DNA from: Psammoneis japonica | Lineage: Eukaryota | Reading direction: 5' to 3' | Length of the DNA stretch: 64,000 nt | NCBI GenBank assembly: GCA_008632985.1 | Contig: QPGO01000100.1 | Coordinates: 238,388 to 302,387, forward strand | In this document: positions 23,452 to 55,068 of the stretch, piece by piece | Numbering within the stretch: the first letter of the stretch is position 1 | How the letters are laid out: each line of letters starts with the position of its first letter | Translations under genes and position numbers: made by a program | The notes under the pieces: model-generated | Seen by the model: only the letters and a program-made list of their open reading frames with translations | Databases searched by the model: none | What the model was told of the DNA's origin: nothing

Positions 23452-25083
23452 TTAATAACAGCAACCGTCGTCGATAGCTTCTCGCATGTTGCGAGGATGG
23501 AACCAAACATTTAATCCGTACTTTTTTCCACGTGTAACTGTCATTGCTTCATGAAATGCCAAGTCATGTGGTTTCTCAAAGTCGTTGTCCAGCACGTTTT
23601 GCCACAAGACGGCTCGTCCCTTTTTCGGTGAAACGCGTTTTTCAATCTCTGTAAAATGAAGGTCGCCACCTTCTTCGACATCACTCAGAAATACGTAAAG
23701 AGTTAATATTCGATTTCCACATCGTTCTAGTCCTTGTGTCGAAATGAGGTCGTGGTGCTCTTCGTAGTGTCCGCCCTCATTGTACATTAAAATCTCCATG
23801 AATTCCGTGTTTTCAAGCTTCATCTCCGTCGTATTCAGCATTCGATCCATAACTTTCTCACCGACAGACTCGTCTTCACATCCATCCTCACACCAAGCAT
23901 GTAAACTGGTTCGTCCTTGCCCAACATTGTTGCCAAAGGCTCCATCAATGTCGACTTCCTCGGTGATTTCAGCTGTTTGTTCAAAGCCAATCTCGGCTCC
24001 CTTTTGAATCAACCAATCACACTCGTCGCTGGACAAGTAGTCATCAAATACGAGGATCCACGGTAGAGGAGACTCACCAGCTTGTATCGCTTCACCTGTC
24101 GGTCGTGATAACACAGTAGCCTTTGGCGCATGGCTTGATGACACGAGGCGCTCAAACACGGCATGCAATTGCCCGGTTGGCAACATGTCCATGTCCTCGG
24201 GTCGCCGGGCACATTTGCGATAATGCGCAATTGCACTACAAGCTTGACAAGCCGGCGCACAATGTTGAAACATTCGTATCGCATCATTGGTTCCGTGGCA
24301 TTCTCCCATGGCGGCATAGGTGCTGCAATACTCGTCCAAGTTTCGACAATCTCTTCGTACCTCTTGATACTCTTCTTCTTGATACACTTCATTCACCATA
24401 TAATCGCGCGTCTTTTGAATTACTTTTTCAATTTCTTCTCGTATCTTTGCATCCTTATGGTAGGTTTGCTGCTTGACTCCCATGTCAATGGTGACGGCTT
24501 GTGTCGAGTCACCAAAACACACCAGACAGGACCTTGGGCAATTTTGCAACATGTACTCGGAATCCTCCACACACTTCCCTACTTGTGCCTTTTGCTCACA
24601 GTCCTCATCCTTATCTTCACACTTGCCATTTTCTTTGTCTCCTGTATGCAAAAAGTAGGCAAATCCTCGAATCGCATCTTGATAAATCTGCTTGTCTGAC
24701 ATTGTCTCGACCGAAACGCCACCACCATGATGTACACAGGATACCGGACAGTGGGAGAGCATAAATTCAGGGTTTCGTTCACATTCTCCGTTACGAGCCC
24801 AATCTTGACAATGTTCTCGTTTATCCATTCCATATTTCTTGCGATATTTTTGGGTTGAAGAATCATTAATGCGGTTGAGTAGTACCCACAAAAAGGACGC
24901 TAGACAAAAGACAAAACAGAAGAGGTATAGAAAAAGACAGAACGTGTTGTTACTAGCACTGCTCTTGGACGATGAGCGCTGCTTGTTTTTCCTGAAGTGA
25001 TGTGCTGCTGGATAATATGAAGCAGGCTGAGCCGTATGAAGGGGAAGACCATGATTGGAACTACTTCCTCGATGGCGCAACAT
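23452..25083 (-). CDS. P4H: Prolyl 4-hydroxylase with ShKT domains, type II membrane anchor
   Basis: ShKT units (CQDWARNGEC..NPEFMLSHCPVSC); 2OG-Fe(II) motifs HHD, RILTLYVFLSDVEEGG, PKKGRAVLW, HEA..V..G.K; real start MLRHR at 25083. Confidence 0.92.
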   Translation of the reverse strand: MLRHRGSSSNHGLPLHTAQPASYYPAAHHFRKNKQRSSSKSSASNNTFCLFLYLFCFVFCLASFLWVLLNRINDSSTQKYRKKYGMDKREHCQDWARNGECERNPEFMLSHCPVSCVHHGGGVSVETMSDKQIYQDAIRGFAYFLHTGDKENGKCEDKDEDCEQKAQVGKCVEDSEYMLQNCPRSCLVCFGDSTQAVTIDMGVKQQTYHKDAKIREEIEKVIQKTRDYMVNEVYQEEEYQEVRRDCRNLDEYCSTYAAMGECHGTNDAIRMFQHCAPACQACSAIAHYRKCARRPEDMDMLPTGQLHAVFERLVSSSHAPKATVLSRPTGEAIQAGESPLPWILVFDDYLSSDECDWLIQKGAEIGFEQTAEITEEVDIDGAFGNNVGQGRTSLHAWCEDGCEDESVGEKVMDRMLNTTEMKLENTEFMEILMYNEGGHYEEHHDLISTQGLERCGNRILTLYVFLSDVEEGGDLHFTEIEKRVSPKKGRAVLWQNVLDNDFEKPHDLAFHEAMTVTRGKKYGLNVWFHPRNMREAIDDGCCY

Positions 25084-25379
25084 GGTCAAGTTGTGCGTTG
25101 ACGTTGAATGATGGTTGAATGATGGTTGAATGAAATTTTTGAGGACAAATTTTTGAGAAGCAATGCGTTGCGATGGAGCAATGCATGCGCGATCTCTGTC
25201 CGAAGCGAGGGGGGGGAGAGACGTCCGGTTCAATTTTGAATTTTCAAACGGCTGTGGTGACCCAACGGTCAAATGACGGGTCATTTGCCTCGTCGCACTT
25301 TGTACAGCACACGAGGTTGCCATGCTCAAAGACAACTCCATTGGAACACCATGTTGTTGCTGTGCTGAAAAACTCTGAG

Positions 25380-28070
25380 AGAAATCAACAGGACAGAGAG
25401 CTTGGGTGTGCTGGTTGCGAAAACCTGCCCAAGTGCTGGCAACTGTGTGTGACAACATGAGTGCACAGAGAATGAAAGAAAATCTTGATGAGAAAGATCT
25501 GCTCAGCTTTCCAAAAGGTTTGGTTGTCACCACCCATGTGCTGCAGCATGCATGCACAATCCATGGACTCAGCAAACACAGTCGCACAGAGCACACAACC
25601 TTCCTTGACATGTGGTGTCTCTGTGTGGACCCCGCAGGTCACAAAAGGAACAGACAATGCAGCGGCGCACCAGAAACACATGCTGGCCAAAAGTTGATGC
25701 AGCAGCAGACTGGACAGGGACAGCCAGAAGCAACTCAAAGCCAGAGTGCTGCAGCAATGCAGCAGGGGCAGCATGTCCTCAACAAAAAAAGCAAGGAATG
25801 TCCAAAAAAGCACTGGCTGCCTTTCTTTGCTGTTTGTGGTTAACTGCAAATGTCAAGAATCAGCAAAGCTCATGGAACCCATGCAACATGCCCAACTCTT
25901 CAAATGAGAGAGCTGGCCTGTTGTTGTTGCTTCTTGAATCCAACACAGAGAATGACATTGTTGTCACATGGCAAGAAAAACTGTGGTGATGCAGAAAACA
26001 TCAAGGGGTGTGTGTGAGCTGCCAACATGGTGCAAAGTCAGCCCCAGTGCACACCGGCAACAATGAAAAAAGCAAGTGTGCACACCTCTCTTTGCACACA
26101 CTGCTGCTGGTCTGTCAACAGCAGCTGTTGGTCAACAATGTCACACAATGACATGCTGGCAGTGTTGTTGAACTCATGGGGTGCAGGTCAGCAGTGTGTG
26201 AATGCTGGGTTGTGAGTGGGACATTTCCGGGTTTGCCACAGATGGGAGGTTCATCACAGTNNNNNNNNNNNNNNNNNNNNNNNNNNNNNNNNNNNNNNNN
26301 NNNNNNNNNNNNNNNNNNNNNNNNNNNNNNNNNNNNNNNNNNNNNNNNNNNNNNNNNNNNNNNNNNNNNNNNNNNNNNNNNNNNNNNNNNNNNNNNNNNN
26401 NNNNNNNNNNNNNNNNNNNNNNNNNNNNNNNNNNNNNNNNNNNNNNNNNNNNNNNNNNNNNNNNNNNNNNNNCCCCCCCCCCTCCTTTTCTTGCACACAG
26501 CAATGGAGGGTGAGGGCCTTTTGAAGAGCTGGCTCTTCATTGTGAGTGCAAAGATGATGATGGCAGCAGGGAAGGAGAACAATGTCCAGCTGTGCTGTGC
26601 AATCTCAGAGGCAAGGTGTGGCAACTGCACCCAGCCAATGCAGTGCCACAAAGTTGCAGCAAGAGCAAACAGCCTCAGTGCCACAGAAATCTTTTGTGTG
26701 AGTCACAACAATGCTGGGGGTGCAGCCAGCTTCAGCCCTTTCATTTGCCCAGAGAAGGTCTCAATGCTGTGCCACCTGCCTGCGCAGCACTTCTAAACTT
26801 TGCTTTTTGCTTTGATTTTTTTTGGGTCTCCACCAGCAGCTGTGCAGGCTGCCATGAAAGCTGCCCAGTGTCCCCTTTTTGTCATCAGGAAAGAGAACAG
26901 TTCTTTCACTGAGTGCAAAAAATCAGCATCTGAAAAAGAGTGAAGCTTGGTTGTGTCCATGTGAAAGCATTGCCATTGTTTGAGAGCACTTTCTGTTGGA
27001 TTGTTCAAGCTGAAGCCTGCACTTTGTTTTTTGGATCTCACATTTTTGGCAACAACAACACTCGCTTGTTGTGTTGGCTTGAGCTGGGATTTCCTGCAGC
27101 TGTGCCACTTTTGTTGAATTTGCAAGCATGTGTTGCTCAAAAGTGCACTTGTTGAGAAAGCAACAACCCAACCAACATTGATTCAAGCATGTCAGTTGGA
27201 AGCAGTGGTGTGGTGACAAATGTTGAAAAGACCTCTGTTGTAGAATGAGAAATTTTTCTGCCTTGCAGCAAAGCAAAGTCATGGATGTGAAAATAAAAAA
27301 AAGCAAGGGGAAAAACAGGTACCTGACATCATTGGGAGGGCAGGCAGGATGGAAAGGTTTTGAGTGCCAAAGTCATTTGGGTGCAGCCCATTTTCCCACC
27401 ACACCATTGGTTTTTGTTTGACCCAGTTGAGGATTTGATTTTGAGGACTGGTGACTTGAAGAGGAGTTTGTGATGCTCAAAGATTCTGTTGGAGCACCAG
27501 ATTGCTTTGACTGGTCTCTGAGAGAACAAGTTGACAAGACAGAGTGATGGTGTGTGGCTGCTGACAAATGACAGAGACAAGCTGACAAAGACTTCCCAAG
27601 CGCTGGCAACTGTGTGTGACAAATGTGAGTGCAGAGAGAATGAGAAGATCTCACAAAGGAAATCTGCTCAGCTGCCCGAATGGTTTGACCATCATCCATG
27701 GGCAGCATGAACAACAAAGTCTGTGGGCTTTGCAGCTCACAAGATGGAAGCATCTGTGTTGTTGACCCTGCAGGTCACAGCAAAAAGGGGGCAGCACAAC
27801 AGCACATTGTGTGGACACACACATTTAAAGGCAAGGCAACAACAGACTGGACAACAATGTGTCATTGGTGGCAAGTGCTGTCCATTTGTGATGTGCAAGG
27901 GCATGGCAAATGAACAGCAAAAAACAGGTTTTTGGATGACTGCAAGTGCCAATCAGCACAGCTCATGGCAAGTCAAGCAACATGCCCGACTCTTCAAAAG
28001 AGAGTCATTGTCTTGCTGAAATCTGGCACAGAGAAGATCATTGTCACACAAGACAAAAACACACTGTGAA
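25380..28070 (+). repeat. Dispersed degenerate repeat A (copies about 25380-25990 and 27520-28070)
   Basis: Shared cccaag.gctggcaactgtgtgtgacaa...atctgctcagct...gaccc.gcaggtcaca...cagca.agctcatgg...caacatgccc.actcttcaaa.gagag. Confidence 0.8.
26261..26471. other. Assembly gap (N run)
   Basis: Run of n characters. Confidence 1.
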
Positions 28071-30150
28071 GAACAACATGAGGGGCATTTCAACCTCACA
28101 CATGTGAACCACACAATTGTCAAGTGTTTGCCTCATGTGACAACAAATGCGATGCACAAACAAATGATTCCAGGAAGCATGAGAGTGCTGCAAAAAATGA
28201 TCACACACTCTCTTCCCTCAAAACACCCACAAAATTGCATCCAGGTTGAGCCCAGGTTCTGGATGATCAGAACTTTTCCCTGCCAACCATCAGAGTCATT
28301 GCTCTGAATGCTTTTCTTGATGTGAGGTGCTGAGTGCAAAATCAAGCTGTGTTGGTGCCACAGTGGTTGTCACCTGCACAAGTGGATGTGCAGTGCTGTG
28401 CGAAATGCCTGACACACAGCAGAGCAGAGACCGGAAAACACACAAGAGGTGCACACCAAATGTTCATTGAAGGTGATGTGGGGGCAATGACAAATTGTGG
28501 CAAGGTTCCCTTGTGTCAATGCTGTGATGACAACCAACAATCTCAAGCAAGTTCTGCAATGCACAAACAAGTCCAAGCCCAAGCTGCATCAGATGACATG
28601 GCTGGTGCATTTCAAGGCAATGCACATGCCAGATGATCAGGCTGCCAATTCCAGATTGCACACATCCACTGGATGATCAAAACAACTTCTCCTTGTCAAA
28701 CAGGAGAGTTGGCACTCTCTGTGTGGGTGCGCTTTTGGGAATGCAACAAGTTGCTGCTGCTCAGTGCAAGCAAACAGCACTGGGTGCTACAAAATGGTTG
28801 TCTGCAAACCAATGACACAGATCAGCAGAAATGCCCAGCATGCAGCAGGAGGGCAGAGACTGAAAAACACAAATGAGGCACCCATCGTCATGTGCTCATT
28901 GAGGTTGCTGTAGGTTGTGGCACTGTGATGAGATTTTCTTGTGTGCACGCCACAATGATGGTCAACAATCTCAAGCAAGTTTTGCAACAAGCAAGTCCAA
29001 ACTGCATGAAATGCATGGCAGACCTCAGCAGGGGACACATGCACAGGCAGCACCATGCTGCATCAACCAACTGCAAGTGCGCTCTCAAATGAGCAAGTCC
29101 ACTCTGCACAAAAAATGTGGTGCAATTCAGCAGGAAATGCACACAGAGGTTGTGTGGTGCTGCATCAACCAACTGCAAAGAATGCACAAAACAAAAAAAA
29201 CAAAAACAAGAAGCTTGGGCAGTGACCAGCAGGTGCAGCACCAGCAAAAAATGTCTGGCATTTGTGTTTGCAGAAAACAAGTGTTGGTGCACACACCACA
29301 GATGTGGTGCCAGTGTGCACACCAGCAACAAAATGTCGCAAATGGAAGAGCAAATGGGCACAGCCCTCACACATGCTGCTGGTCACAATGGACAGTTGTC
29401 AGCTGACAGCACTGACATGGGGTTGTTGCACCCAGTCAATGATGCGGCAGGTCAGCACAAAAATGTTGGGTGGCTTGCAGAACCTTTTTTGCATCTGCAG
29501 CAGGTGAGAGGCTTGTTGATGATGGACCCCTCCTCTGATGGTGTCACAGGGTTAAAACAAAGCCTCTGAAGGGACACCACAGAGAGGTTGTTGAGGTGGT
29601 GTGGCAGAGTGGACCCAGAGAAAACCACAGTGTGTCTTTGTGAAAATTGTGTTGTGCCCCTGTTTTTGGAGAAAAATGCAACAAGGAGTGCTGCAGCCCA
29701 CCTTGACTGAGGAGTGGGTTTTGCCAAAAGGCACCTGGGCAGGTGAGAGATGTTGAGAGTTGCACATGGTGGCTGTCAGAATCAGAAAAGAGAGCAGTTT
29801 GAGCCAAGTGAAAAAAATGCATCTGAAAAAAAGTGGAGCTTCATGTTCATGTGAAAGCACCGCCATTGGCAGACAGCACTGTCTGTTGGGTCACTCAAGC
29901 TGAATCCCACACTTCATTTTTTGGATCTCACATTTTGGGTGACAACAACTCAGTTGCTGTGTTGACTTGAACTGAGTTTCCAGCAGCAGCTGCGCTGCTT
30001 TTGCAAGCACATGTGGCTCAAAAAAAGTGTGCATGACAACAACACCACCCAATCAACATTGACTCAAGTGTGTCAGTTGGAAGCAGTGGTGGTGGCAAAT
30101 GTTGACGAGACCTTTGTTGTCAATGAGAAATTTCTGACTTGCAGTGAAGT
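26920..30150 (+). repeat. Dispersed degenerate repeat B (copies about 26920-27265 and 29810-30145)
   Basis: Shared catgtgaaagca..gccattg...ttttttggatctcacatttt...caacattga.tcaag..tgtcagttggaagcagtggtg...aatgagaaattt. Confidence 0.85.
28460..29060 (+). repeat. Degenerate repeat C (copies about 28460-28635 and 28895-29050)
   Basis: Shared caacaatctcaagcaagtt.tgcaa....caagtccaa and flanking sequence. Confidence 0.7.
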
Positions 30151-31630
30151 GCTGAAGTGGCCATGAAAATGAGACACCACCCACCCATGCCATTGCTGCT
30201 CTGCTTTGTAATGTGAAGCTTCTTTGCACTTGTTTGCAGGCTTCTTGGTTGTGTTGCACTCTGCCTGCAAGAAATTTCTGCACTGCAACAAAGCAGAGTG
30301 GTGATTTCAAAACCGAGACACCACCAATGCCTTTGTTCCACTTGCCAAGGACATGGGGGCTGTCACTCTTGTCTGTGGGCTGCTTGGTTGCCACACACAT
30401 GCTTTGCCTCATGGCTGGAGAGTGAAAAGTTGCTCTTTTGTCCCTGCACCAAAGCTGACATGGACAACTTCAAGTGCAGACAAAAACATCAATTGTGTGG
30501 TCTCAGCTCCTGCTGTTTGGCCCAGCAACACTGGCTCTGTGTGTCATGGACCTCCGCTCCCCATCACATCAAAGATGTGACAGGAACAACCAATGCAGCA
30601 ATGTTTTGAGTCAAGGTGGGATTTGGCTGGGTGCTTCTTGTTGCACAGCACCAAATGTTTTTGCCATGACTGAATGATGAACAAGCCAGTGGGGGTCTCG
30701 CAGCTGTCAACAAAAATCACAGCAGAAAAAATGTGCCTGTCTTCAAATGTCAGCTTCAGAAAATCCAACCTGAAGGGTGCAAGGGCTTTGAAGAGCCATT
30801 TCTGGATTGGAGAGCTGCCTTGGAGGAGAATGCATCTTGTCTGGAAAAAAGGCCTGGGAAGTTGCCAACAAATGTTGGGAGAAGGAAAGTGCTGGGAAGT
30901 CTTGACAAGAGTCTCAGAGAAGCACCAAAAATGGAAAGATTGGCCCCGTTCAATGCTTGGAATGCAGTCACACATGTGGAAAACAACAGCTGCAGAGGTG
31001 CTCATTTTGTCTTGAGAACTCAAACAAAAAAGACAAAAAATGTGAGAATGTCTTGGATGCAGCATGTCTTGGATGCAGAATTGTGCAGAGGAGGTGTGCA
31101 GCCATTGGGGGTGAGAACACAAGAAGAGAAATCACCATGGCAGTGATGCTGCACCCAAATGAATTTGGAATGGAGTGTCACCTCTAACACCTGCACAACA
31201 TCTCCATCATGGCACAACTGCCAAGCACTCCAAAGTGACTGAGGAAGCTGCCTGGCACAATGCCCAACTCTTGCACAGGACAGCCATGTGGCTGCTTGCA
31301 CAAAAAAACAGCTGCAAAGTGCAGACATCACATGTTGTGAGAACCATCCACCCCGTTGTCACCAAGGCTTTTGTGCAGCCAGCATTTGGCAAATCAACAG
31401 TGAAGAGTGTCATGTCAAAAGCTCTGCAGCTGGGCAATCTGAAGCGGAGAGCAAGAGAAAGAGTGAGACCAGCCATGACACCAGACAAAAAATGCAAAAG
31501 TTTCAAGAACCCAATCATCATGTTGAGCAATGAAAGCCACCTCCTCATTGATGCCCATGCTGGCAACCATCATTCTTGCCTCCTTGCCATGATGGCCATT
31601 GCTGAATGTTTTAGAACAAGAGCAAGTTCA

Positions 31631-32586
31631 CAGCAGCAGCAGCAGCAGCAGCAGCAGCATCCACTGTCCGAAATCCACCATCCAGAATCTGCCATCCAGA
31701 ATCCGCCATCCACCATCCACCATCCGCCATCCAGCATCCACCATCCCGCATCCACCACCCACCATCCACCATCCATCATCCACCATCCACCATCCACCAT
31801 CCACCATCCACCATCTGCTGTCCACTGTCCACCATCCAGCATCCTCCATCCACCATCCATCATCCAATGTCCAGCATCCAGCATCCAGCATCCGCCATCC
31901 AGCATGCACCATCCAGCATCCACCATTTGCCATCCAGCATGCACCATCCACCATCCGCCATCTGCCATCCACCATTTGCCATCCAGCACCCAGCATCCAC
32001 CATCCTCCATCCAGCATCCACCATCCGCCATCCAGCATCCACCATCCACCATCCACCATCCATCATCCACCATCCGCCATCCATCATCCATCATCCATCA
32101 TCCACCATCCACCATCCAGCATCCACCATCCAGCATCCAGCACCCACCATCCGCCATCCGCCATCCAGCATCCAGCATCCACCATCCACCATCCACCATC
32201 CAGCATCCATCATTCACCATCCACCATCCACCATCCAGCATCCACCATCCAGCATCCAGCATCCATCATCCACCATCCGCCATCCAGCATCCACCATCCG
32301 CCATCCACCATCCTGCACCCACCATCCACCATCCCGCATCCACCATCCCACATCCACCATCCACCATCCAGCATCCACCATCCAGCATCCACCATCCGCC
32401 ATCCGCCATCCAGCATCCACCATCCAGCATCCACCATCCACCATCCGCCATCCACCATCCACCATCTGCCATGCACCATCAAACATCCACCATCCACTGT
32501 CCACCATCCAGCATCCACCACCCACCATCTGCTGTCCACTGTCCACCATCCAGCATCCAGCATCCACCACCCGCCATCCACCATCC
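31631..32586 (+). repeat. (CAG)9 followed by a roughly 0.9 kb 7-bp satellite (TCCACCA/TCCAGCA/TCCGCCA)n
   Basis: Directly visible heptamer tandem array; gives HHPPSSI-type translations. Confidence 0.95.
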
Positions 32587-33577
32587 AAAAAAAAAACGAA
32601 ATCTGTTTTACCACTGCCTCGCTGCTGCCCACACCAACACCTGCCATGGCAGATGCACATTCCCCAGCACCCACAAAGGGCAGCAGGGACAATTTGAACA
32701 CTGTGAACGTTGTCAGAAAGACAGTGCCATTAACACGTTGTCCGAAGGCAATGCCGTTAGTGCATCATCAGAAAGTGGCTGTTTGTTTTAAGTCAGAATG
32801 GCACCAACTGGATGCTTGTTGCACGGCAGCACAGTTGCTGTGCCTCAAAGAATGGACAAGCCCAGCCACACCACTTGGGAGACACCAAAACAAACACGGC
32901 AGAAAACTGAAACACATGTCTGTCTCCAAAGACAATTTGCTTGAAGAGAATGTGAATGAAATTCCTGGCATGAAACCATCCAGGAAGTCGCTCCAACACG
33001 GACCCCAACGATGAAAGGAAATGATGATCGCGGAAAACACCATCACACGTAGAATTGCACAGGAATTGTGCACTGAAGCTGCAGCATCGAAGTGCAAAAA
33101 GAGCAAACACTCAGACCTGGAAATGCTGGCCACTTGAAAGACTTATGAAGACCCACTTTGAAGTGCTGCCGTGCAGTGTTGATCATGACATTGAATTGCA
33201 CTGTAAAGAAAACTTGGAGGAAGAACGTTGGCAAGAAAACCAAAGGATGAAACTTGAAACGGTCTCGACTCAAAATTCTGGCCAAACGTGCAGAATTGCA
33301 CATGGAATTTGCACTGTAACAACTGACTTGGAAATTGCTGAATCACGTAGAAACCAATGCATAAAACACACTGACACATGGAAAGAAAATGCAAAGAGAT
33401 GCGACACCATGGCGGTGCCGCCCCCCCGAATGTAGACACAACAGAGTGTCCCCTCCGATGCCTTTTGGTTTCTCTGTCATTGGTGCAACTGCCTGACGTC
33501 CCAAAGTGCCCGAAGAGGTTGGCATGCCACCGCACTCTCACACGGGACAATCCTGCAGGTGCTTGAGCAGAATTGTG

Positions 33578-33932
33578 CCATCCACCATCCAGCATCCAGC
33601 ACCCACCATCCACTGTCCACCATCTGACTGCCATCCACCATCCAGCATCTGCCATCCAGCATCCACCATTCAGCATCCGCCATCTGCCATCAACCATCTG
33701 CCATCCACCATCCACCATCAACCATCCAGCATCTGGCACCCAGCATCCACTGTCCAGCATCTGCCCTCCAGCGCGCAGCATCCATCATCCAGCATCCACC
33801 ATCCAGCATCCCCAGCACTCACCACCCACCATCCTCCAACCACCTTCCATTGCCCACCACTCAACATCCAGCATCCAGCACCCAGCATCTGCCATCTGGC
33901 ATCTGCCATTCACCATCCAGCATCCACCATCC
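33578..33932 (+). repeat. Second, more degenerate array of the same 7-bp satellite
   Basis: catccac/catccag/catctgc units. Confidence 0.92.
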
Positions 33933-36824
33933 ATTGGGGCCATTTTTTCCAATGCTGTCAGCCCATCACTGCCTTCTCTCACCACAGACTGTGCCACCAT
34001 GCAGGGTGTGCTCAACAACAAAATTAACACATTGACCTCAACAACAAGTTGACAGAGTTGCCTTGTCAGCAGTGCCAGCATGAGAGTTCACAACAGCACA
34101 GGTTGTGTGAGGCATGCACCCAATGACTCCGTGAAAAAGAGGGTGACAAGAGTTGTGCTGCAGCATGATGGCAGAAAAAGTTCCGGGTCATTTGGGAGGA
34201 TGTCGTTTCTAATGTGAATGCCGGCTTTTCAAGATGTTGAAAGAATTTTTGTTTGGGGTTGCAGTTTGGAATTTGAGTGAAAAAGATCATTGGATGTGTG
34301 AAATGACACGACAAATGCACAAATGTTTGCAACAATTGTGCTGCGATTGTGCATTTGACGCTGGATGCAGTTGTTGATGATGGCACTTGTTGGTGTTTGG
34401 GCTCAGTTCATGCTGCAGTTTGTGGGTGATGTCAAGTCTTAGATCTCATTGACCAACTTGCAATGTTGACTGCTCATCTCAATTGTCACAGAACAGAAGA
34501 ACAACTGTCTCTCAGAAAAAGACAGAAAGAAAGGAAGAACATGAGTGCAATTGAGAGTTGCAGGATGCACCCACCCCCCTTGTTCCCATTCAATCCTGCT
34601 GCATCATTTTGTGTCTCCATCAAATGTTTTGGTGAAAATTGCACTGCATGCCTTCTGACCCTGTGGTGTGGCAAGGAGACAATGGGTTTGCATTCTGGAC
34701 TCTGACTCAGATTCACACATCAATGATCTCTTCCCACATGGACAGTTGCTTTCAGTTAAGATGTGCATGATGGACTGCAAAACTTGCTGTCAAAGACTGC
34801 TGGCTTGTGAAAAATTCTGACAATTCCAAGAGACCAAGAGACAGCTCCCCTGAACTAACTCATCATGTTGTTTCCTGGACAACGCCATGCTGCAGAAGAA
34901 ACAAAAGGGAAACAACTCAATTTGGACACGCAAAAATGTGAAAAAAATGAACCTCAAGTCCCAACAAGTTGGTGGCACCATTTTGTGCTTCATGGTGCAA
35001 AGCAACCCTTGTGAGATTGCACTTGTGAAGATTTGAAGAATGTTGAAAAAAGAGCGAACTTGGTTTGCACCATGAGCATGTGAATGACATTGATGCAGAT
35101 CCCAGCTGATGATTTCAAGCTGACTTGACACATTGTTTCAAAACCAAGAGCTTGGCTGGACACTTTGAAGGAAACGGGCATGTCATTTGGGACTTGCACA
35201 TTGTTGAAAAAGGGTGTTTTAATGCTGCTGGATTGTTGTCACACATTGGGTCCCAACAAGGAAAGAATCCCACAGTGTGTGCAGCCTGGTGTTGGAGAAT
35301 GCAAATGCAACAGGAGCATGCAATGTCTGTGACTTTGCTGGAACCATCAAAGGCAAGAGAGTCAACATCTTCAACATTGTTGTCTTGAACCCAGTTGTGC
35401 AGGCACCATGCACAGCACCAGAGGGCTTGCTGTAAAACCACCATCTCATGCTGTCAAGCAAGCTGTCAGTGGTGCCATCATCCAAGCACTGGCTCATGTT
35501 GGTGGCCTTGTTGGAGAACACACAAAAGGAGGACATTCAGAGAAATGCAGTGCAGAATGCATTGGTGTCAAAGCAATTGAACCATGGGGACACTGCGGCA
35601 GATTGCTGGGAACCTTTGTGCTTGGTGGAACAATTGGCAACAGTTTTGTGGGAGGTGGTGTCACTGAATGTGGAGATTGAGTCAGTGGCCTTGTTGGACT
35701 CTTGTCTGCTGACAGCCTTGTTTCAAGCAGCTGTGCATGCGGCGGCATCAAAGTGAATGGTGACAATCACAAAAAAGCAACCCTCCAGTTGGCGGTGGTC
35801 TTGTTGGGTGGAACACAGGTTCAATCCAGAACAGCTTTGCACTGGAAAAATTTCCAGTGGGTCCAGGGCATGTCTTGGGATGCTCATGGGTTAGATCTGA
35901 CAAAAGGTCTTGTCTCACAACAACTGCTGCAGGACAGAGCCTCCAATTGGCACCAAGGTGCAGGCAAAAGTCATTGACGATCCAAGCTGCTTTTGAATTC
36001 AGGGCAATGAGCCAATGTTGAGCTGGAACATTGACACTTGGACTTTTGGAGTGAGCTTTTGCCCATCGCTCAAGTGTCGGAACACACATGGCCACCAGCA
36101 ATGAGCCCAAGCATTGTTTCCACTGGACGGTCAACAATGACAAGTGTGCCGTTGACAGGGCCACTGTCGTTCATCATTGTCTTGTTTGCCATGGCCTTCC
36201 CAAGTTGCCGACCAAGGCAACCGCATGCATCACTGCCAATTCCAATGACAGCATGTGAAGACTGCACTGCTGTCATTGTTGCGGGAACTTTGAAGAAGAT
36301 CACACAGCATCTGGGTTGCATCAAGCTTGAACTGCACAAAATTATCCAAATTGAAAAATCTAGAAAAACATTGTTCGAAAGGTCACGCGGGCGAAAAAGC
36401 TCTTGACGAAGCAACGGCACTTCACTCCCGCAAAGTCCCTGGCGCATACAATCTGTTGCAAGGTCTAAGAAATCAAGTCGGCGAAAAGGTTCGCTGAGGA
36501 CAAATGACTCTAGAAGACCAAAAGAGAATTGTGGCTGTCATCAATGAGGCACAGCATCTCATTGATCTATTGAATGCATTCTAGGGTTAACGCGAAAGAG
36601 CCTTTACGTTCTTCGATGCACCATTCACGGTGGCTTGTTTCCAGTAGAAAAAGAAAGGCGCTGAAAAATGTCAAGAAATGATGCTTTTCAAAAGTAGGGC
36701 CGTAGCTAGTACAAACTAAAAATGAGCGCTCTACTAGAAGTGTAATTCATTGTTAAATTTATCACATATCCATTAAAACTTCAAAACGCTAAAACTACTG
36801 TTGTACAGACAGATTCAAGTCAGT

Positions 36825-49844: not shown

Positions 49845-50921
49845 GGATTTCTTTTTTGAATTGTGTGATTTGTATTCGTATTTTAGACAAAATGGTTGGT
49901 TATACATCCTTTGGTTTTGATTGTTTTGTCGTTGTTCAAGTTTGCGGCAAGTGGTTATTATTACTTTATTTTTGTACTGCAAGCTCGCATGTCTTGTTCC
50001 TACAATAGCGGCTGTTATCGATTCTCATTTCCAAGAGAAGTGGAAAAGTCCAAATCATTCTTGCGTGTGTTGAAATAGAGCAGAACTAGTCTCTATAGAG
50101 AGAATCAGAGATAATAGAGAATCTCTATAGTTAGTTAGTAGCTTGATCTCGAGAGAGTAGTTAGTTCGTTCGTCGGTTGACTCGTCATTTCACGATTTCA
50201 ACACGATGTTGCCACATTGATGTAGTGGCGTCAATCTAAATCCATATACACCACGAGATTTGGCCAAGGCAGCTATACATTGTGAACTCTAGGTTGGCGT
50301 TGATTTTTAAACTCGGTTTTGCTTTGATATCATCTCTAGCTCAATGTTTTAGAGTTTTTCCCTATAGTTTTGTACAACTTGGACGAGACCTGCATGAAAT
50401 GGGGCGTCGTGTGTCATGATGGGACCCATCATCTTGATCTATCTAGAGTGTACTGTACCACGAAGCGAAAGAAGCGCGGCGGTTACGATGGGCAATTAAA
50501 AAAATGTCAATAATTGAAGTAAATAAACACGTGGAATGTGGTCTCTGACCTTATTGCGTGGCTGAAGAAAACACGAGCTAAATCGCTGTCACTTCCAAAT
50601 CTCCCTCCGACCTCATCACAACATCAGCTGAAAACAAACACCAAAACCCGCCGTCGTTCTACAGTCCCGGTTCATTTCAGGAGAATCATACCCCATATCC
50701 AGCCCAACATTGAATGTTGTAAAAGGTGACAACACCATCTTCCCCTCTCTCGGGCGGCACGATCGATGCGGGGGAGTTGTGTTTTTGGTGCGTTTCACGC
50801 AGAAATCTACGTGTCTGGTGCTTGACGTTGATGCTTCCTCTCGATGGATGCCTCAGTTTCTGCTCTCGATTCTCTCACAATCTTTTCTTTGACCAGGAAG
50901 TAACACAGTCAAGACATCGCC

Positions 50922-52370
50922 ATGATTGCCTTCATGAAGAACCTTGTTGTCATCTCCCTTGGCATTGCTGCCGGTGCCGCGAGTGCTGGTCCCTTTGCCC
51001 GCCCGCTTTCGGCCGTCTTTGACTCGACGGTGCAAGGTGTGTTGATTGCTGTGAAAGCAAGTCAAGACATGCTTCACATTGCTTTGGCCATGACCACAAT
51101 TTTTGCGCCGATCGAAAGCCATGATGACTCCTTCATCCGCCTCCCAAAACATCCTCCGCAACACCACACCTGCGAGCATGCCCGTTGAAGCTCAAATCAG
51201 GTCGAGCATCTATTGTGTGTCTTTTGACCACAAGGACTGCGACTCCACCCTTCTTCACAACATCATTCGAAACTGCACACCTGTGGACGACGTGCCAGTT
51301 GAAGCTCTAAAAGCCTCGAGCTCTGTCTGCCAGTCTTCCTTCGACTTGTCCTTGGAGCACGAAATCGATTTGTCTGGCCGTTTCCAAGAAATCTTTCAAG
51401 AGCACGTGCCCACCGCAATGATGCCCATCCTGACATTTTCCGACACTTGCAAGATTTTGTCAAACTGTGCCATTGAGACCACGTTGAAGTTGCACACGAC
51501 ACTCCATGAATTCTCTTTGAAGACCACCAAGACTGTTCGTGAAACCGCTTCGAGCTTGCACAAGATCATCCATGACTCCTTGAAGACCTTTGTCACAAAG
51601 ATGCAAATTCAGGCTTGCATTTGGAAAGAACACATGATGACGCAGCTTCAGACACCAAGATTGTCATTGGAATGTTGGTGGACGACAATTTTCAAGAATC
51701 AACAAATGGCTTTGTCACGCTTGTTCAAACTCAGGCTTGTGCTCTGCATGAAAAATACGAGACGATGCTGTTTCAGACACCAAAATTGTTCTGCATCCAG
51801 AACATTGGTGGACAAGAGTTCAAAACTTGTGGAAGAGCTTTTAGTCTGGGTGCGAGTGTGGGCGAGCGAGATGTCAAGAGTTGGGGACATTCCTTGTGTC
51901 CCGATCCGAATCATGCGGTGAATTGGGTTGGTTGTCAGACACAGGGTTTGGAGTTCCAAGTCGCCAGTTGTCAGATGATGCAGCAGGTGTCCTGTGCAGA
52001 CACAAATGAAAATTTATCCATCTCTGTCATAATTCACATGCTGGGTTGGTGTCCATTGCTCCATCAAAAAGGTTGTGCCGCAAACCGTGTCTCCCAAGAA
52101 CGACTTCCGCGCGCGACTGCCTGATGATGATCCAAGCTGCCTTTGCCAGTGCAGCTTCAGACAGACCCACAGCACTTGCGTGGCACAGAACCTGTCGGCA
52201 TCACACTCGCACAAGAGGAAACCGCAGAGAGGGAAGGCTCTGGCGCATGCCAAGATGACTTTGATTGTTGCAAAGAACACGAACAACATGCACCGTGCCA
52301 GTCGGCAAGACTCACAAGTGTTTTCGGCTTGCCCAGACGCATGTAACGCACAGTTTGAGACCTTCTAATG
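50922..52370 (+). pseudogene. Degenerate gene of unknown family with a signal-peptide-like start
   Basis: MIAFMKNLVVISLGIAAGAASA followed by overlapping broken frames that are nearly Tyr-free. Confidence 0.4.
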
Positions 52371-52499
52371 TCGCAGACGCATGCTGTGAATGTGAACTCT
52401 GTTGATGCAGTGGATTGAGCTGTGGTCATCGTGCCAAATTTGGTCACCATGAATTTCTTGCGGGGACTGCGACAGGCGTTTTCAACGGGGGTTCAGCAA

Positions 52500-53100
52500 T
52501 TGAGAAGCTGTGTCGTGTGTGTCAGCCTCAAGCGCTTGCACTCTTTGGATCCAAAAATGTTGCAGCAGCTCACAGACTTTAAGCCTGAGAGCATCATGCC
52601 CAAATCTCTGGCCAGCTGATCAACTGGAGGATCAGATTTGAGGCCCTCAGTGTCAGCCTGCTGGGACACAACTGGCTCTTTGCACTGATGAATCTTGGTC
52701 CTTGCCGAAGAGAGATTGCTGTTGCTTGAGAGTTGATCTGCTGAATCGATTTCATGCGCACAGTGAATGCGAAGCCATTGAGCCACAACGTGAGGTCTGG
52801 CTGAGACACTTCTTTGCCCGTGGGCCTTGCGATGGAGCAGCTGATGCAATTGCCGAGAGCAGGTCGCTTTGCAAGAGTGTCGGTTTGGCAAAGGCCATTG
52901 CAGACATGTGGAATCGGATTTGGTCCAATGCAACCCCATGGAGTGGCAAGAGTTACGTCAAGGAGAACATCACGACTCTCCTCGGCATAAAAGTCACCCA
53001 CCGTGACTGCAAATGAGCCATCATCCCTCTTGACGGCACTTTCATGATGGACTTTGGTGATTTTGTCACCAAGATTTGCCACCTCTTGGTTTTGGTCACG
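52500..53100 (-). pseudogene. C-terminal fragment of a VWA-domain protein
   Basis: VTVGDFYAEESRDVLLDVTL resembles the GDLYAEE.RD.L motif that follows VWA domains; frameshifted; VWA core not seen. Confidence 0.6.
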
Positions 53101-53599
53101 TGACGGGCCTGTAGAAAACCCAACGAGTTTGATGACTTTCTTGTCACGTGCTTTGGAGCACTCTCAAGTCGCTTCTTCTTGCTGATTGACAGAGAAGGGA
53201 TGACCACGTGTGTTCGACTGTCGCGACTGAGCAGGAAAGTGTGAACATGGCGAGGTCACGTGCATTCTGCAGCAAAAGTGAACTTGATGAGTTGGCAATG
53301 GGAACCTCTTCATTGTTGCTTCACTTCTTGGTGCGCCAACTGTCAAGTGTGCATGAAATGTCGTGTGCTCGCACTCAAAAGAACGCGACCATGACGTCAA
53401 GCTCATTGCTCTTACAAAACTGCTTTCCACCCGGCCTCGGTCTAAAATCAATGTGCCATCAGTGCCCACATGGACATCATTCCAGAAAAGCACGGGGTGT
53501 CAGTCTGGCTGGGCAAAAGAGTCCAAAGGACATCACAAACCCACTGTCCATCAAGTTTTTGTCTGGCTTCGGAGTCCAGTGGCTAGACTCTTGTTCCAG

Positions 53600-54350
53600 T
53601 TCTAAAGCTTTCAATTCATGCAACGGCGGCACATTCTCCATCACTCCCGGGTTCCAGTTTCTCCCAGATCACCCCCATCATTGGCTTTTTAGGTGGTGGC
53701 TCAATTTGCATCTGCTGAGTTGGCGTTGCAATGTAGTCAGAGAGGGTGTCGCAAGGGCTTGGACAAAGTTCCTGATCGGAAACAACCTGGCAGTCATGAA
53801 CCAAAGATGCAACTGGCATGCCCAAGTCGATGACTCCAATCTGGTGGAGCACAGCCCATTCCAGGTCAAAGCATCCATGTCCCTTGCCAAAACGCAGCCC
53901 ATCTCGGTTGACGACTGAGGCTCCTGCAACTGCCAAATCTAATTTGCTGTGCCTCTGACGAATGTCCGACAACGAAACGCATTGCCGACATCTTTGCAGT
54001 TGTCCAGCAAAACAGTTGCACTGGCGGTGCCGGCAGTCTCTCCATCTGATGGCCTGATTTTCAAAATTACCTTCTGCATCCCACCTGTTGGCATGACAAC
54101 CACCTTGCCGTCTTGTCCTTCTGCGCATCCCAGCAGCTTCTCGAGACAGTTGTCAGGTGTGATGAAGATGGTTTTTGCTTCTGAACATGCTTTCATTTGT
54201 CACAATCTTTTCGTTGCAAGTTCGCTGCCTTCAAAGTCTGGAATGAAATGGTTGAAGTCACAGCCATGACACTTGTGAGGTTTCGCCACTCGCTCCATTC
54301 TCGTCACACCCACTTGGCGTTGCAGCCTTGCGCCAAGTTGCCACGTCATT
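53600..54350 (-). pseudogene. 5-formyltetrahydrofolate cyclo-ligase-family pseudogene
   Basis: DFNHFIPDFEGS, AKTIFITPDNCLE, DGK.VVMPT, G.RFGKGHG(C)FDLEW and VHDCQVV; in-frame TGA at 54200-54202 plus frameshifts. Confidence 0.85.
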
Positions 54351-54937
54351 TTGTCCCACTGACAGCAGCTTGCAGTGGACGGGAGGTGCAGGCGCGAGGG
54401 ACAGCTGGTTGTTCTTCACTGGCATTTGTCATGGATTCTCTGCTTTTGCCCATTGTGGAGGCACCCATGGATGTTCTGTTCCGCAGAAATGTGAAAGGCA
54501 GAATCTCTGGCCTGGGGTGGCAGTCGCGTGGATTCCTTCTCCATTGACCGTCATCAAAAGCAACACCACAGAAACATTCCTGCCAAGGCAGTTGCACATT
54601 TAGGAAATGAAACGTTCTTCCCAACACCGGCAGAAGTGAAGGATTCTTTTCGAACCTCGACGGTCAATGGCGGGTCCAATCACAAAACACAAAACATCTC
54701 GCAGTGGAGTCTCTGCTCTCTGCTCGCTGCAACAAAGAGTGAGTCCATTTTCATCAGGAGCTGGATGAAGCCCATGGTACAAACTTAGAGACAACGGGTC
54801 TAACGGCACCAGCGCCATTGTCGAGAATCAATCATTAGATTTTGATGATGCTCTCTGCAGATGTTGCAGAACGTAGGTTCCACGTAGAAGTAATGCTATA
54901 AATCTCTCCCCAGCGTTTGAATTAACAATTTCTTACC

Positions 54938-55068
54938 CGGTCTGACATCCGTCTGACATCCGTCTGACACCCGTCTGACATTTTTTTTTGTCAGACTACT
55001 CACAAAATACACGAAAAAAATTCGTTTTGAAACGCCCGTGAAACGCCAGTGAAACGCTCGTGAAACAT
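54938..55068 (+). repeat. Two short 11-bp tandem arrays: (CCGTCTGACAY)x4 with one inverted copy, and (GTGAAACGCYM)x4
   Basis: gtctgacatccgtctgacatccgtctgacacccgtctgaca-t9-tgtcagac, then tgaaacgcccgtgaaacgccagtgaaacgctcgtgaaac. Confidence 0.9.

Follow-up and report, generated by a model that had tools for sequence, protein, structure and literature searches.

A decayed gene of the 5-formyltetrahydrofolate cyclo-ligase family in a TA-poor domain of Psammoneis japonica and its probable footprints of TpA-directed mutation

A 64,000-nucleotide stretch of the Psammoneis japonica genome (GenBank assembly GCA_008632985.1, contig QPGO01000100.1, positions 238,388 to 302,387 of the forward strand; hereafter the window, in whose own numbering all positions are given) was found to carry on its minus strand the relic of a gene of the 5-formyltetrahydrofolate cyclo-ligase (5-FCL) family, which lies in a sharply bounded domain of about 4 kb that is nearly devoid of the dinucleotide TA. 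Within the borders of this domain TA has been lost and TG and CA have been gained symmetrically, across coding, non-coding, repeated, and single-copy DNA. Judged from the comparison of homologous sequences, the change was shown to run from TA. We consider it probable that the gene is a pseudogene marked by a directional process that turned TpA into TpG or CpA and, in doing so, removed tyrosine from the encoded protein and flooded it with cysteine. The process may have inactivated the gene, or it may have acted on a copy that was already dead.

The relic gene and its reading frame

The relic, its two readable parts, and the lesions that interrupt it were located as follows.

Positions 54349 to 53619, minus strand: the whole 5-FCL family relic, a decayed, intronless member of PF01812
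Positions 53978 to 54349, minus strand: N-terminal part (frame A), with an ATG at 54349, collinear with residues 1 to ~125 of homologues of 245-250 aa
Positions 53619 to 53978, minus strand: C-terminal part (frame B), PF01812 at 26.0 bits (E-value 1 × 10−5), best phmmer E-value 6.7 × 10−45, stop codon at 53616-53618
Positions 54200 to 54202, minus strand: in-frame TGA stop (TCA on the plus strand), in a column that is variable among the seven nearest relatives (R, V, A, I, C, C, C)
Positions 53978 to 53980, minus strand: −1 frameshift, with two bases where the relatives have one Tyr, His, or Pro codon

A preliminary description of this DNA had read it as a 5-FCL pseudogene on the basis of several motif strings and an in-frame TGA, and all of these were found at the coordinates given for them in the minus-strand translation of positions 53600-54352. 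Frame A (54352 to 53978) runs from the ATG at 54349 through HGCDFNHFIPDFEGS, with a Cys codon at 54260-54262 of the minus strand, to the TGA and then to MKACSEAKTIFITPDN, with a Cys codon at 54185-54187 of the same strand; it shares the motifs FIPDFEGS and FITPDNCLE with its homologues. Frame B holds GKGHGCFDLEW (Cys codon TGC at 53871-53873, GCA on the plus strand), AVLHQIG (His codon at 53844-53846, minus strand), and VHDCQVV, with GKGHG.FDLEW and VHDCQVV being motifs of the family. The assignment to the 5-FCL family was borne out by homology to 734 proteins at an E-value ≤ 1 × 10−3 in an exhaustive phmmer search with a 121-residue query, while a word-indexed protein search with the relic returned 53 proteins at an E-value ≤ 1 × 10−5, all 53 of which carry PF01812. 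The PF01812 (5-FTHF_cyc-lig) score of the C-terminal piece (25.8 bits when a longer open reading frame was used) did not reach the Pfam cut-off of 27, and the N-terminal pieces of the relic gave no Pfam match; the shortfall in score fits what would be predicted of a decayed copy. The closest protein, P0154, was 51% identical to the relic over 232 columns of a collinear alignment. The relatives form a subfamily of ~245 aa (245-250 aa), with bacteria and fungi among the few named sources (Roseovarius, Albidovulum, Hoeflea, Anaerolineae and Chloroflexota metagenome-assembled genomes [MAGs], Capronia, and lichen fungi). Canonical bacterial MTHFS was tried and rejected as the identity of the gene, with the relic scoring 14.2 bits (E-value 0.031) against a cut-off of 84.9 for the TIGR02727 equivalog. 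By homology, the relic is thus classed as a bacterial-type gene of the ~245-aa 5-FCL subfamily, other than canonical MTHFS. It is like the members of this subfamily in its full-length collinearity and in the FIPDFEGS, FITPDNCLE, GKGHG.FDLEW, and VHDCQVV motifs, and differs from them by its stop, its frameshift, its shortened tail, and its loss of invariant residues.

The relic is a dead gene with a broken reading frame, as it combines the TGA, the −1 frameshift, a short tail, the loss of invariant residues, and a long branch in the tree. At the frameshift, frame A ends in GGC AAT GCG and frame B starts one base earlier with GTT TCG TTG, where the relatives read G followed by R, N, or H, then Y, H, or P, then I, V, or L, and then S-L. 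The C-terminus is ~14 residues shorter than in the relatives, and residues invariant in the seven nearest relatives, e.g., W16, R74, Q85, Y90, and G95, are missing. Derivation of the TGA from CGA, which had been proposed in the preliminary description, is possible but weak, with Arg at this column found in the sister protein P0154 only. A 2029-nt contig rebuilt from a public sequencing run covers positions 52729-54756 and departs from the window by four other letters and one gap, at places outside the differences listed in this work; its word depth of 64.8 marks the pseudogene region as single-copy. This contig argues against the relic sequence being an assembly quirk of the window alone. In run X2, no cover was found over 53139-54641, and a TA-retaining paralogue of positions 52372-53080 was present at a depth of 39.6.

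Loss of tyrosine and the direction of change

Both frames of the relic were aligned with 87 homologues of 225-300 aa, and the residues observed in the seven nearest relatives were taken as the ancestral states. In a tree built by FastTree, P0154 came out as the sister of the relic (support 0.88); the clade that holds them both has eight members (support 0.99), of which those with names are all bacterial MAGs, and the branch of the relic is 0.99 long compared with a median terminal branch of 0.32. Since the relic is nested in this clade, states common to all seven relatives changed on its own branch. When the amino acid composition was compared with 49 homologues, Tyr was reduced to 0.4% (2.3 ± 0.6% in the homologues, minimum 1.1) and Cys was raised to 4.5% (1.3 ± 0.5%, maximum 2.6). 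Fifteen columns bear Tyr in at least one of the seven nearest relatives; at these the relic has Cys or His seven times and Tyr once, whereas the seven relatives, each examined against the other six, have Cys or His 0-2 times and Tyr 6-10 times. The same count for each of the 87 homologues against its own seven nearest relatives reached a maximum of three Cys or His (0 in 42 homologues, 1 in 34, 2 in 7, and 3 in 4).

In a back-transition test, all single-base changes of the 735-nt reading of the relic were scored, with a rescue counted when a residue absent from all seven relatives gave way to one that occurs among them. Transitions that create TA gave 17 rescues per 100 nonsynonymous changes, compared with 16 of 297 for other transitions (one-sided Fisher test, P = 6.1 × 10−4); CG-creating transitions gave 9 of 90, and transversions gave 68 of 1224. 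With the sister P0154 alone as the reference, the result was similar for TA-creating (14 of 89) versus other transitions (11 of 275; P = 4.5 × 10−4). The 17 TA footprints comprise Tyr to Cys (four), Tyr to His (three), Ile to Met (three), Val to Ala (four), and one each of Leu to Ser, Thr to Ala, and Met to Val. On the coding strand nine of these are TA to TG and eight are TA to CA, and therefore both strands were affected about equally. Candidate CpG footprints were also noted, including Arg to Cys at two columns, Arg to Gln, and the stop. The direction that the preliminary description had proposed, from TA to TG or CA on both strands, is in agreement with these counts.

The codons at individual Tyr columns were then compared with the seven nearest relatives and, where given, with the 87 homologues.

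Positions 54185 to 54187, minus strand: KA-C-S, Cys codon TGT, alignment position 56; Tyr in 7 of 7 nearest relatives; 43 Tyr, 19 Phe, and 11 Cys among the 87 homologues
Positions 53844 to 53846, minus strand: L-H-Q, His codon CAC, position 170; Tyr in 6 of 7; 35 Thr, 18 Tyr, and 14 Arg among the 87, Thr being commonest
Positions 53871 to 53873, minus strand: GHG-C, Cys codon TGC, position 161; Tyr in 1 of 7 (the sister only) and Phe in 6 of 7; 57 Phe and 24 Tyr among the 87
Positions 54260 to 54268, minus strand: H-G-C, codons CAT (His), GGC (Gly), and TGT (Cys), positions 29-31; Tyr in 4 of 7 at the His column and 2 of 7 at the Cys column
Positions 53751 to 53753, minus strand: PSP-C-D, Cys codon TGC, position 201; Tyr in 3 of 7 and Phe in 4 of 7
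Positions 53949 to 53951, minus strand: a further Tyr to His site; Tyr in 2 of 7

The preliminary description had named four of these sites as usually Tyr in the family. This was upheld for KA-C-S and L-H-Q; it is weak for GHG-C and for HG-C-DF, whose column is variable (18 Leu, 12 Lys, 11 Tyr, 10 Phe, and 9 Trp among the 87 homologues). Phe or Cys in the homologues, which that description had counted as evidence contrary to its reading, was found at two of the four sites. Three extra sites of the same kind were detected, namely His at 54266-54268, Cys at 53751-53753, and His at 53949-53951. The proposed interpretation is thus partly supported, being right in substance and overstated in detail, with two weak sites and with the best Tyr columns not fitting. 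As a separate observation, the sister protein P0154 itself departs from Tyr at two columns: it carries Cys at alignment position 112, a column with Tyr in all of the other six near relatives, and His at a further one.

The TA-poor domain and its composite make-up

The domain around the relic and the elements found within it are the following, with the strand given where one applies.

Positions ~50721 to 54777: TA-poor domain containing the pseudogene, delimited from the list of TA positions
Positions 50467 to 51969: multi-copy repeat in the left part of the domain, with a summed word depth of 613-1335 compared with ~59-68 for single-copy contigs of the same run
Positions 52372 to 53080: two-copy segment, with one further copy of ~89% identity elsewhere in the same sample
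Positions 52597 to 53163, minus strand: a second, unrelated, Vwaint-like gene relic that overlaps the two-copy segment and is 53% identical to P0218 over 109 aa (E-value 2 × 10−34)

In the 4057 nt of the domain, TA occurs 23 times (5.7 per kb), an observed/expected ratio of 0.09, compared with 428 TA in 9945 nt of its flanks (43 per kb; ratio 0.59). The same ratio for CG is 0.64 in the domain versus 1.08 in the flanks, while TG (402 in the domain, ratio 1.56, versus 728 in the flanks, ratio 1.17) and CA (386, ratio 1.55, versus 738, ratio 1.21) are raised. Its edges were sharp both in the 500-nt profile and in the list of TA positions, with the pseudogene falling wholly inside, 250-430 nt from the right edge. 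The 735-nt reading of the relic is of the same composition as its surroundings (4 TA, ratio 0.09; 28 CG, 0.59; 76 TG, 1.67; 70 CA, 1.55). With ~85% of TA lost from the domain and a much smaller share of CG (~40%), the TA and CpG processes are separable. Over the window as a whole, the 500-nt profile revealed three sharply bounded stretches in which TA is almost absent and TG and CA are abundant, at ~1-2200, ~25000-36200, and ~50800-54600; the borders used for the count of surviving TA were 1-2200, 25050-36300, and 50721-54777. In most 500-nt bins of domains 1-2200 and ~25000-36200 the CG ratio was 0.03-0.25, compared with 0.64 in the domain of the pseudogene, and TA was about equally gone. Across the three domains, CpG loss thus seems to lag behind TA loss.

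The two-copy segment, which lies 0.6-1.2 kb from the pseudogene in the same domain, provides a before/after pair. Among 36 differences listed within 308 nt, there are 10 sites at which the other copy has TA and the window lacks it, and a single site with the reverse; for CG the corresponding numbers are 8 and 1. This polarity matches that of the gene. The Vwaint-like relic that overlaps the segment has three relatives, the proteins P0218-P0220, at 51-53% identity, and these were the only relatives found when a same-genome copy of the segment was sought among public proteins, with none detected. This relic looks eukaryotic; the Atlas points to PF14624, the Vwaint family, with a score of 0.90, which is taken as a lead only. 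The multi-copy repeat was found in the run as several internally deleted variants, keeps a normal TA density in its left 250 nt, and gave no match to Pfam or NCBIfam.

The TA that survive are unevenly distributed with respect to their flanking bases. In the three domains together 66 TA remain, and these were compared with 1833 TA in normal DNA. The tetranucleotide TTAA accounts for 16 of the 66 surviving TA versus 75 of the 1833 (5.9-fold), and CTAA/TTAG accounts for 18 of 66 versus 150 of 1833 (3.3-fold). At the other extreme, ATAT was found at none of the 66 surviving TA versus 116 of the 1833, and ATAC/GTAT at 1 of 66 versus 260 of 1833. Three of the four TA that remain in the relic are likewise in TAA or TTA contexts. 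These values suggest that TA followed by A may be a poor target and TAT the best one, and a bias of this kind would be expected if the enzyme responsible preferred certain flanking bases.

Other features of the window were recorded alongside these analyses. The neighbors are eukaryote-like, with open reading frames (ORFs) that match a branched-chain ketoacid dehydrogenase kinase, an M20 peptidase, and a TAZ/bromodomain protein. A 728-codon open frame on the minus strand (23455-25638), with 2OG-FeII_Oxy_3 and ShK domains, enters the second TA-poor domain (starting at ~25000) with its 5′ end and may be another gene with an overrun end; a run of 212 N occupies 26261-26472 inside that same domain. 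Just beyond the right border of the pseudogene domain, at 54940-54981, an 11-nt unit resembling GTCTGACATCC is repeated in tandem as a short array of overlapping copies. A 19-nt match near both borders (50263 and 54582) was considered as a pair of terminal repeats and set aside as chance, its score of 23 being below the maximum of 31 in shuffled controls. Repeats common to the domain and the rest of the window were not found by blastn, and no viral or transposon domains were found in the ORFs of the domain by Pfam and NCBIfam. Beyond the border ORF with the 2OG oxygenase and ShK domains, the other ORFs of the domain and the ORFs of ≥130 aa in and around the other two domains gave no match in these databases except a DUF6799 match below threshold (20.8 bits versus a cut-off of 26.8).

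Proposed process, competing explanations, and relation to known systems

The process that we propose is a local, DNA-level transition process aimed at TpA in a 4-kb nuclear block, by which TA would become TG or CA on either strand. In codons, Tyr (TAY) would give way to Cys (TGY) or His (CAY), Met would replace Ile encoded by ATA, and Ala would replace Val encoded by GTA, and a slower decay of CpG to TpG or CpA may have added Arg to Cys, Arg to Gln, and possibly the TGA; this CpG component is probably ordinary 5-methylcytosine deamination. The agent would be a DNA-acting enzyme with TpA as its target and a preference for flanking bases, acting in silenced, repeat-associated chromatin and reaching from there into adjacent single-copy DNA. 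The sharp edges, the context bias of the surviving TA, and the relic all support a targeted enzymatic editor over drift. As to chemistry, adenine may be deaminated to hypoxanthine and read as G, on either strand, as has been proposed for Bigelowiella natans; by analogy this is the simplest and most likely of the chemistries, although taken alone it is a tentative choice to which we give somewhat less than an even chance.

Several observations weigh against the proposed process. Of the four sites first named, one has mainly Phe in the family and another varies, and at the strongest of the four, KA-C-S, Cys is the native residue of 11 of 87 homologues. At the two columns where Tyr is best conserved, the relic has Gly (GGT; 7 of 7 relatives with Tyr) and Ala (GCA; 6 of 7), both of which fall outside the proposed change because a single TA transition cannot give GGT or GCA, and a third Tyr column (Tyr in 4 of 7) falls at the frameshift. 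His is without excess (2.9% versus 2.6 ± 0.7%), and Phe is low (2.5% versus 5.2 ± 0.8%), for which TA loss is no explanation. The enrichment of CG-type rescues was not significant compared with other transitions (9 of 90, P = 0.10). The relic departs from all seven relatives at 95 positions, and for 70 of these neither a TA nor a CG change offers an explanation; it had diverged well before the TA process or drifted well after it. The nearest relatives are only 43-51% identical, such that polarity in the gene depends on outgroup proteins of ~51% identity, and the run that confirmed the sequence may be the source of the window's own assembly. The agent and its chemistry, finally, are deduced from sequence.

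The most serious competitor retains a TpA-directed process and places its chemistry on thymine, where a modified or damaged base (hydroxymethyl-uracil, a J-type base, or an O4-alkylated one) would pair with G, with T to C on one strand being A to G on the other. Protists have enzymes that modify thymine. The signature shows no preference for either strand (TG 402 versus CA 386; footprints 9 versus 8), T to C and A to G are indistinguishable by sequence, and the sparing of TTAA together with the disappearance of ATAT can equally be read as a 5′ neighbor rule for T. Nothing in the present data favors this chemistry over adenine deamination, however, and the only experimental report of the signature proposes an ADAT2-like adenine deaminase, itself by prediction only (bioRxiv 10.64898/2026.01.13.699255). 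We regard thymine chemistry as unlikely.

Ordinary decay, in which the Cys and His would be lineage-specific or random changes in an old pseudogene or divergent gene and the low TA would stem from, e.g., the composition of a donor, is already largely refuted and is given very little credence. It can draw on relatives of only ~51% identity, on natural Phe or Cys at two or three sites, and on the most conserved Tyr columns not being Cys or His. It is at odds with a TA ratio of 0.09 across 4 kb that include non-coding DNA, a multi-copy repeat, and an unrelated relic of eukaryote type, as well as with the position of the relic above all 87 controls for Cys or His at Tyr columns, the enrichment of TA-type rescues (P = 6 × 10−4), and the 10:1 asymmetry of the paralogous segment. 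A sequencing or assembly artefact, by which modified bases of heterochromatin were miscalled and TA and CG were read as TG or CA, appears highly improbable. The domains are, like methylated DNA, sharply bounded and CpG-poor, and the sole run with the stretch comes from one sample, possibly the assembly's own source; yet the contigs rebuilt from it, evenly covered at a word depth of ~65, agree with the window over 2029 nt spanning the gene apart from four other letters and one gap, and the relic shows what real decay would leave behind, with a stop, a long branch, and numerous changes outside TA. In the same run the paralogous copy that retains TA and CG was read without trouble, which weighs against a base-calling artefact. 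Hyper-editing of A to I at the RNA level by an ADAR-like enzyme with a 5′ U preference, followed by reverse transcription and insertion, would accommodate a gene relic without introns, the minus-strand location of both gene relics, and the preference of ADAR for U before the edited A that is mentioned in the discussion of the preprint (10.64898/2026.01.13.699255). Reverse transcription of one strand would, however, give TA to TG in one orientation, compared with the 402 versus 386 and 9 versus 8 observed here, no poly(A) tract was found 3′ of the stop, and the domain also includes the multi-copy repeat and non-coding DNA. An RNA intermediate is thus disfavored by the equal orientations and is considered unlikely in the extreme.

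The editing of DNA at TpA, which we prefer to these alternatives, was compared with mutational systems already described. Decay of CpG by 5-methylcytosine deamination resembles what was observed in that CG becomes TG or CA (CG ratio of 0.64, with Arg to Cys and Arg to Gln footprints), and differs in that it is unable to remove TA. In Neurospora and other ascomycetes, repeat-induced point mutation (RIP) changes C to T chiefly at CpA, such that TpA rises and CpA and TpG fall. The domain is like RIP-affected DNA in that transitions at one dinucleotide appear to have accumulated locally, by a kind of hypermutation that ruins repeats or foreign DNA and can extend into the sequence next to them; it does not have the composition of RIP, as its TA ratio of 0.09 and TG/CA ratios of ~1.55 are in the opposite direction. 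RIP is also the comparison named in the discussion of the B. natans preprint (10.64898/2026.01.13.699255).

For B. natans, Mettrop et al. (bioRxiv 10.64898/2026.01.13.699255) described a TpA hypermutation that affects the integrated DNA of giant viruses and virophages, and measured it through the new mutations that arose in mutation-accumulation lines; 230 of 231 new mutations in two regions were A to G or T to C, all on TpA per the authors, and an ADAT2-like adenine deaminase was proposed on prediction only. Positions 50721-54777 present the local signature of the B. natans type, with low TA, raised TG and CA, and bounded edges, and A:T to G:C transitions at TpA on both strands, polarized from TA, were found by way of outgroups of ~51% identity and the 36 listed pair differences. 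The B. natans system is alike in being restricted to TpA, in giving TpG or CpA by strand, in affecting bounded regions of silent or foreign-looking DNA, and in its long-term outcome of low TpA and high CpA plus TpG. It differs in four respects: (i) many TA are kept there (rho 0.45 in the nucleocytoplasmic large DNA virus region), compared with a nearly complete loss here (0.09); (ii) new mutations were measured there, while the change is deduced here from standing sequence; (iii) viral DNA is affected there, and a multi-copy repeat and single-copy gene relics here; and (iv) CpG loss (0.64) accompanies the change here, in another lineage. The signature matches a TpA hypermutation so far reported only in B. 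natans, in that one preprint, and a full-text literature search found no report of TpA-directed hypermutation in diatoms.

The finding is the polarized footprint of a rare, barely described mutational system and not a new system in itself, and on its own it stands as supporting evidence. What the coding relic contributes, through its many outgroups, is the direction of change, from TA, without the need of a second copy. A broader reading, to which we assign nearly an even chance, is that a stramenopile alga has a near-complete, chromatin- or repeat-directed TpA to TpG/CpA DNA editor, for which TAT would be the best target and TAA would be spared, and which would spread from repeats onto neighboring or foreign single-copy genes and erase their Tyr, Ile-ATA, and Val-GTA codons, with the 5-FCL relic being a horizontally acquired gene killed by it. 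A second lineage would make the question of whether DNA adenine editing is an old eukaryotic genome defense testable, in a group with genetic tools. If the existence of such an editor is true, TpA editing would be a genome defense common to distant algal lineages, the Rhizaria and the stramenopiles.

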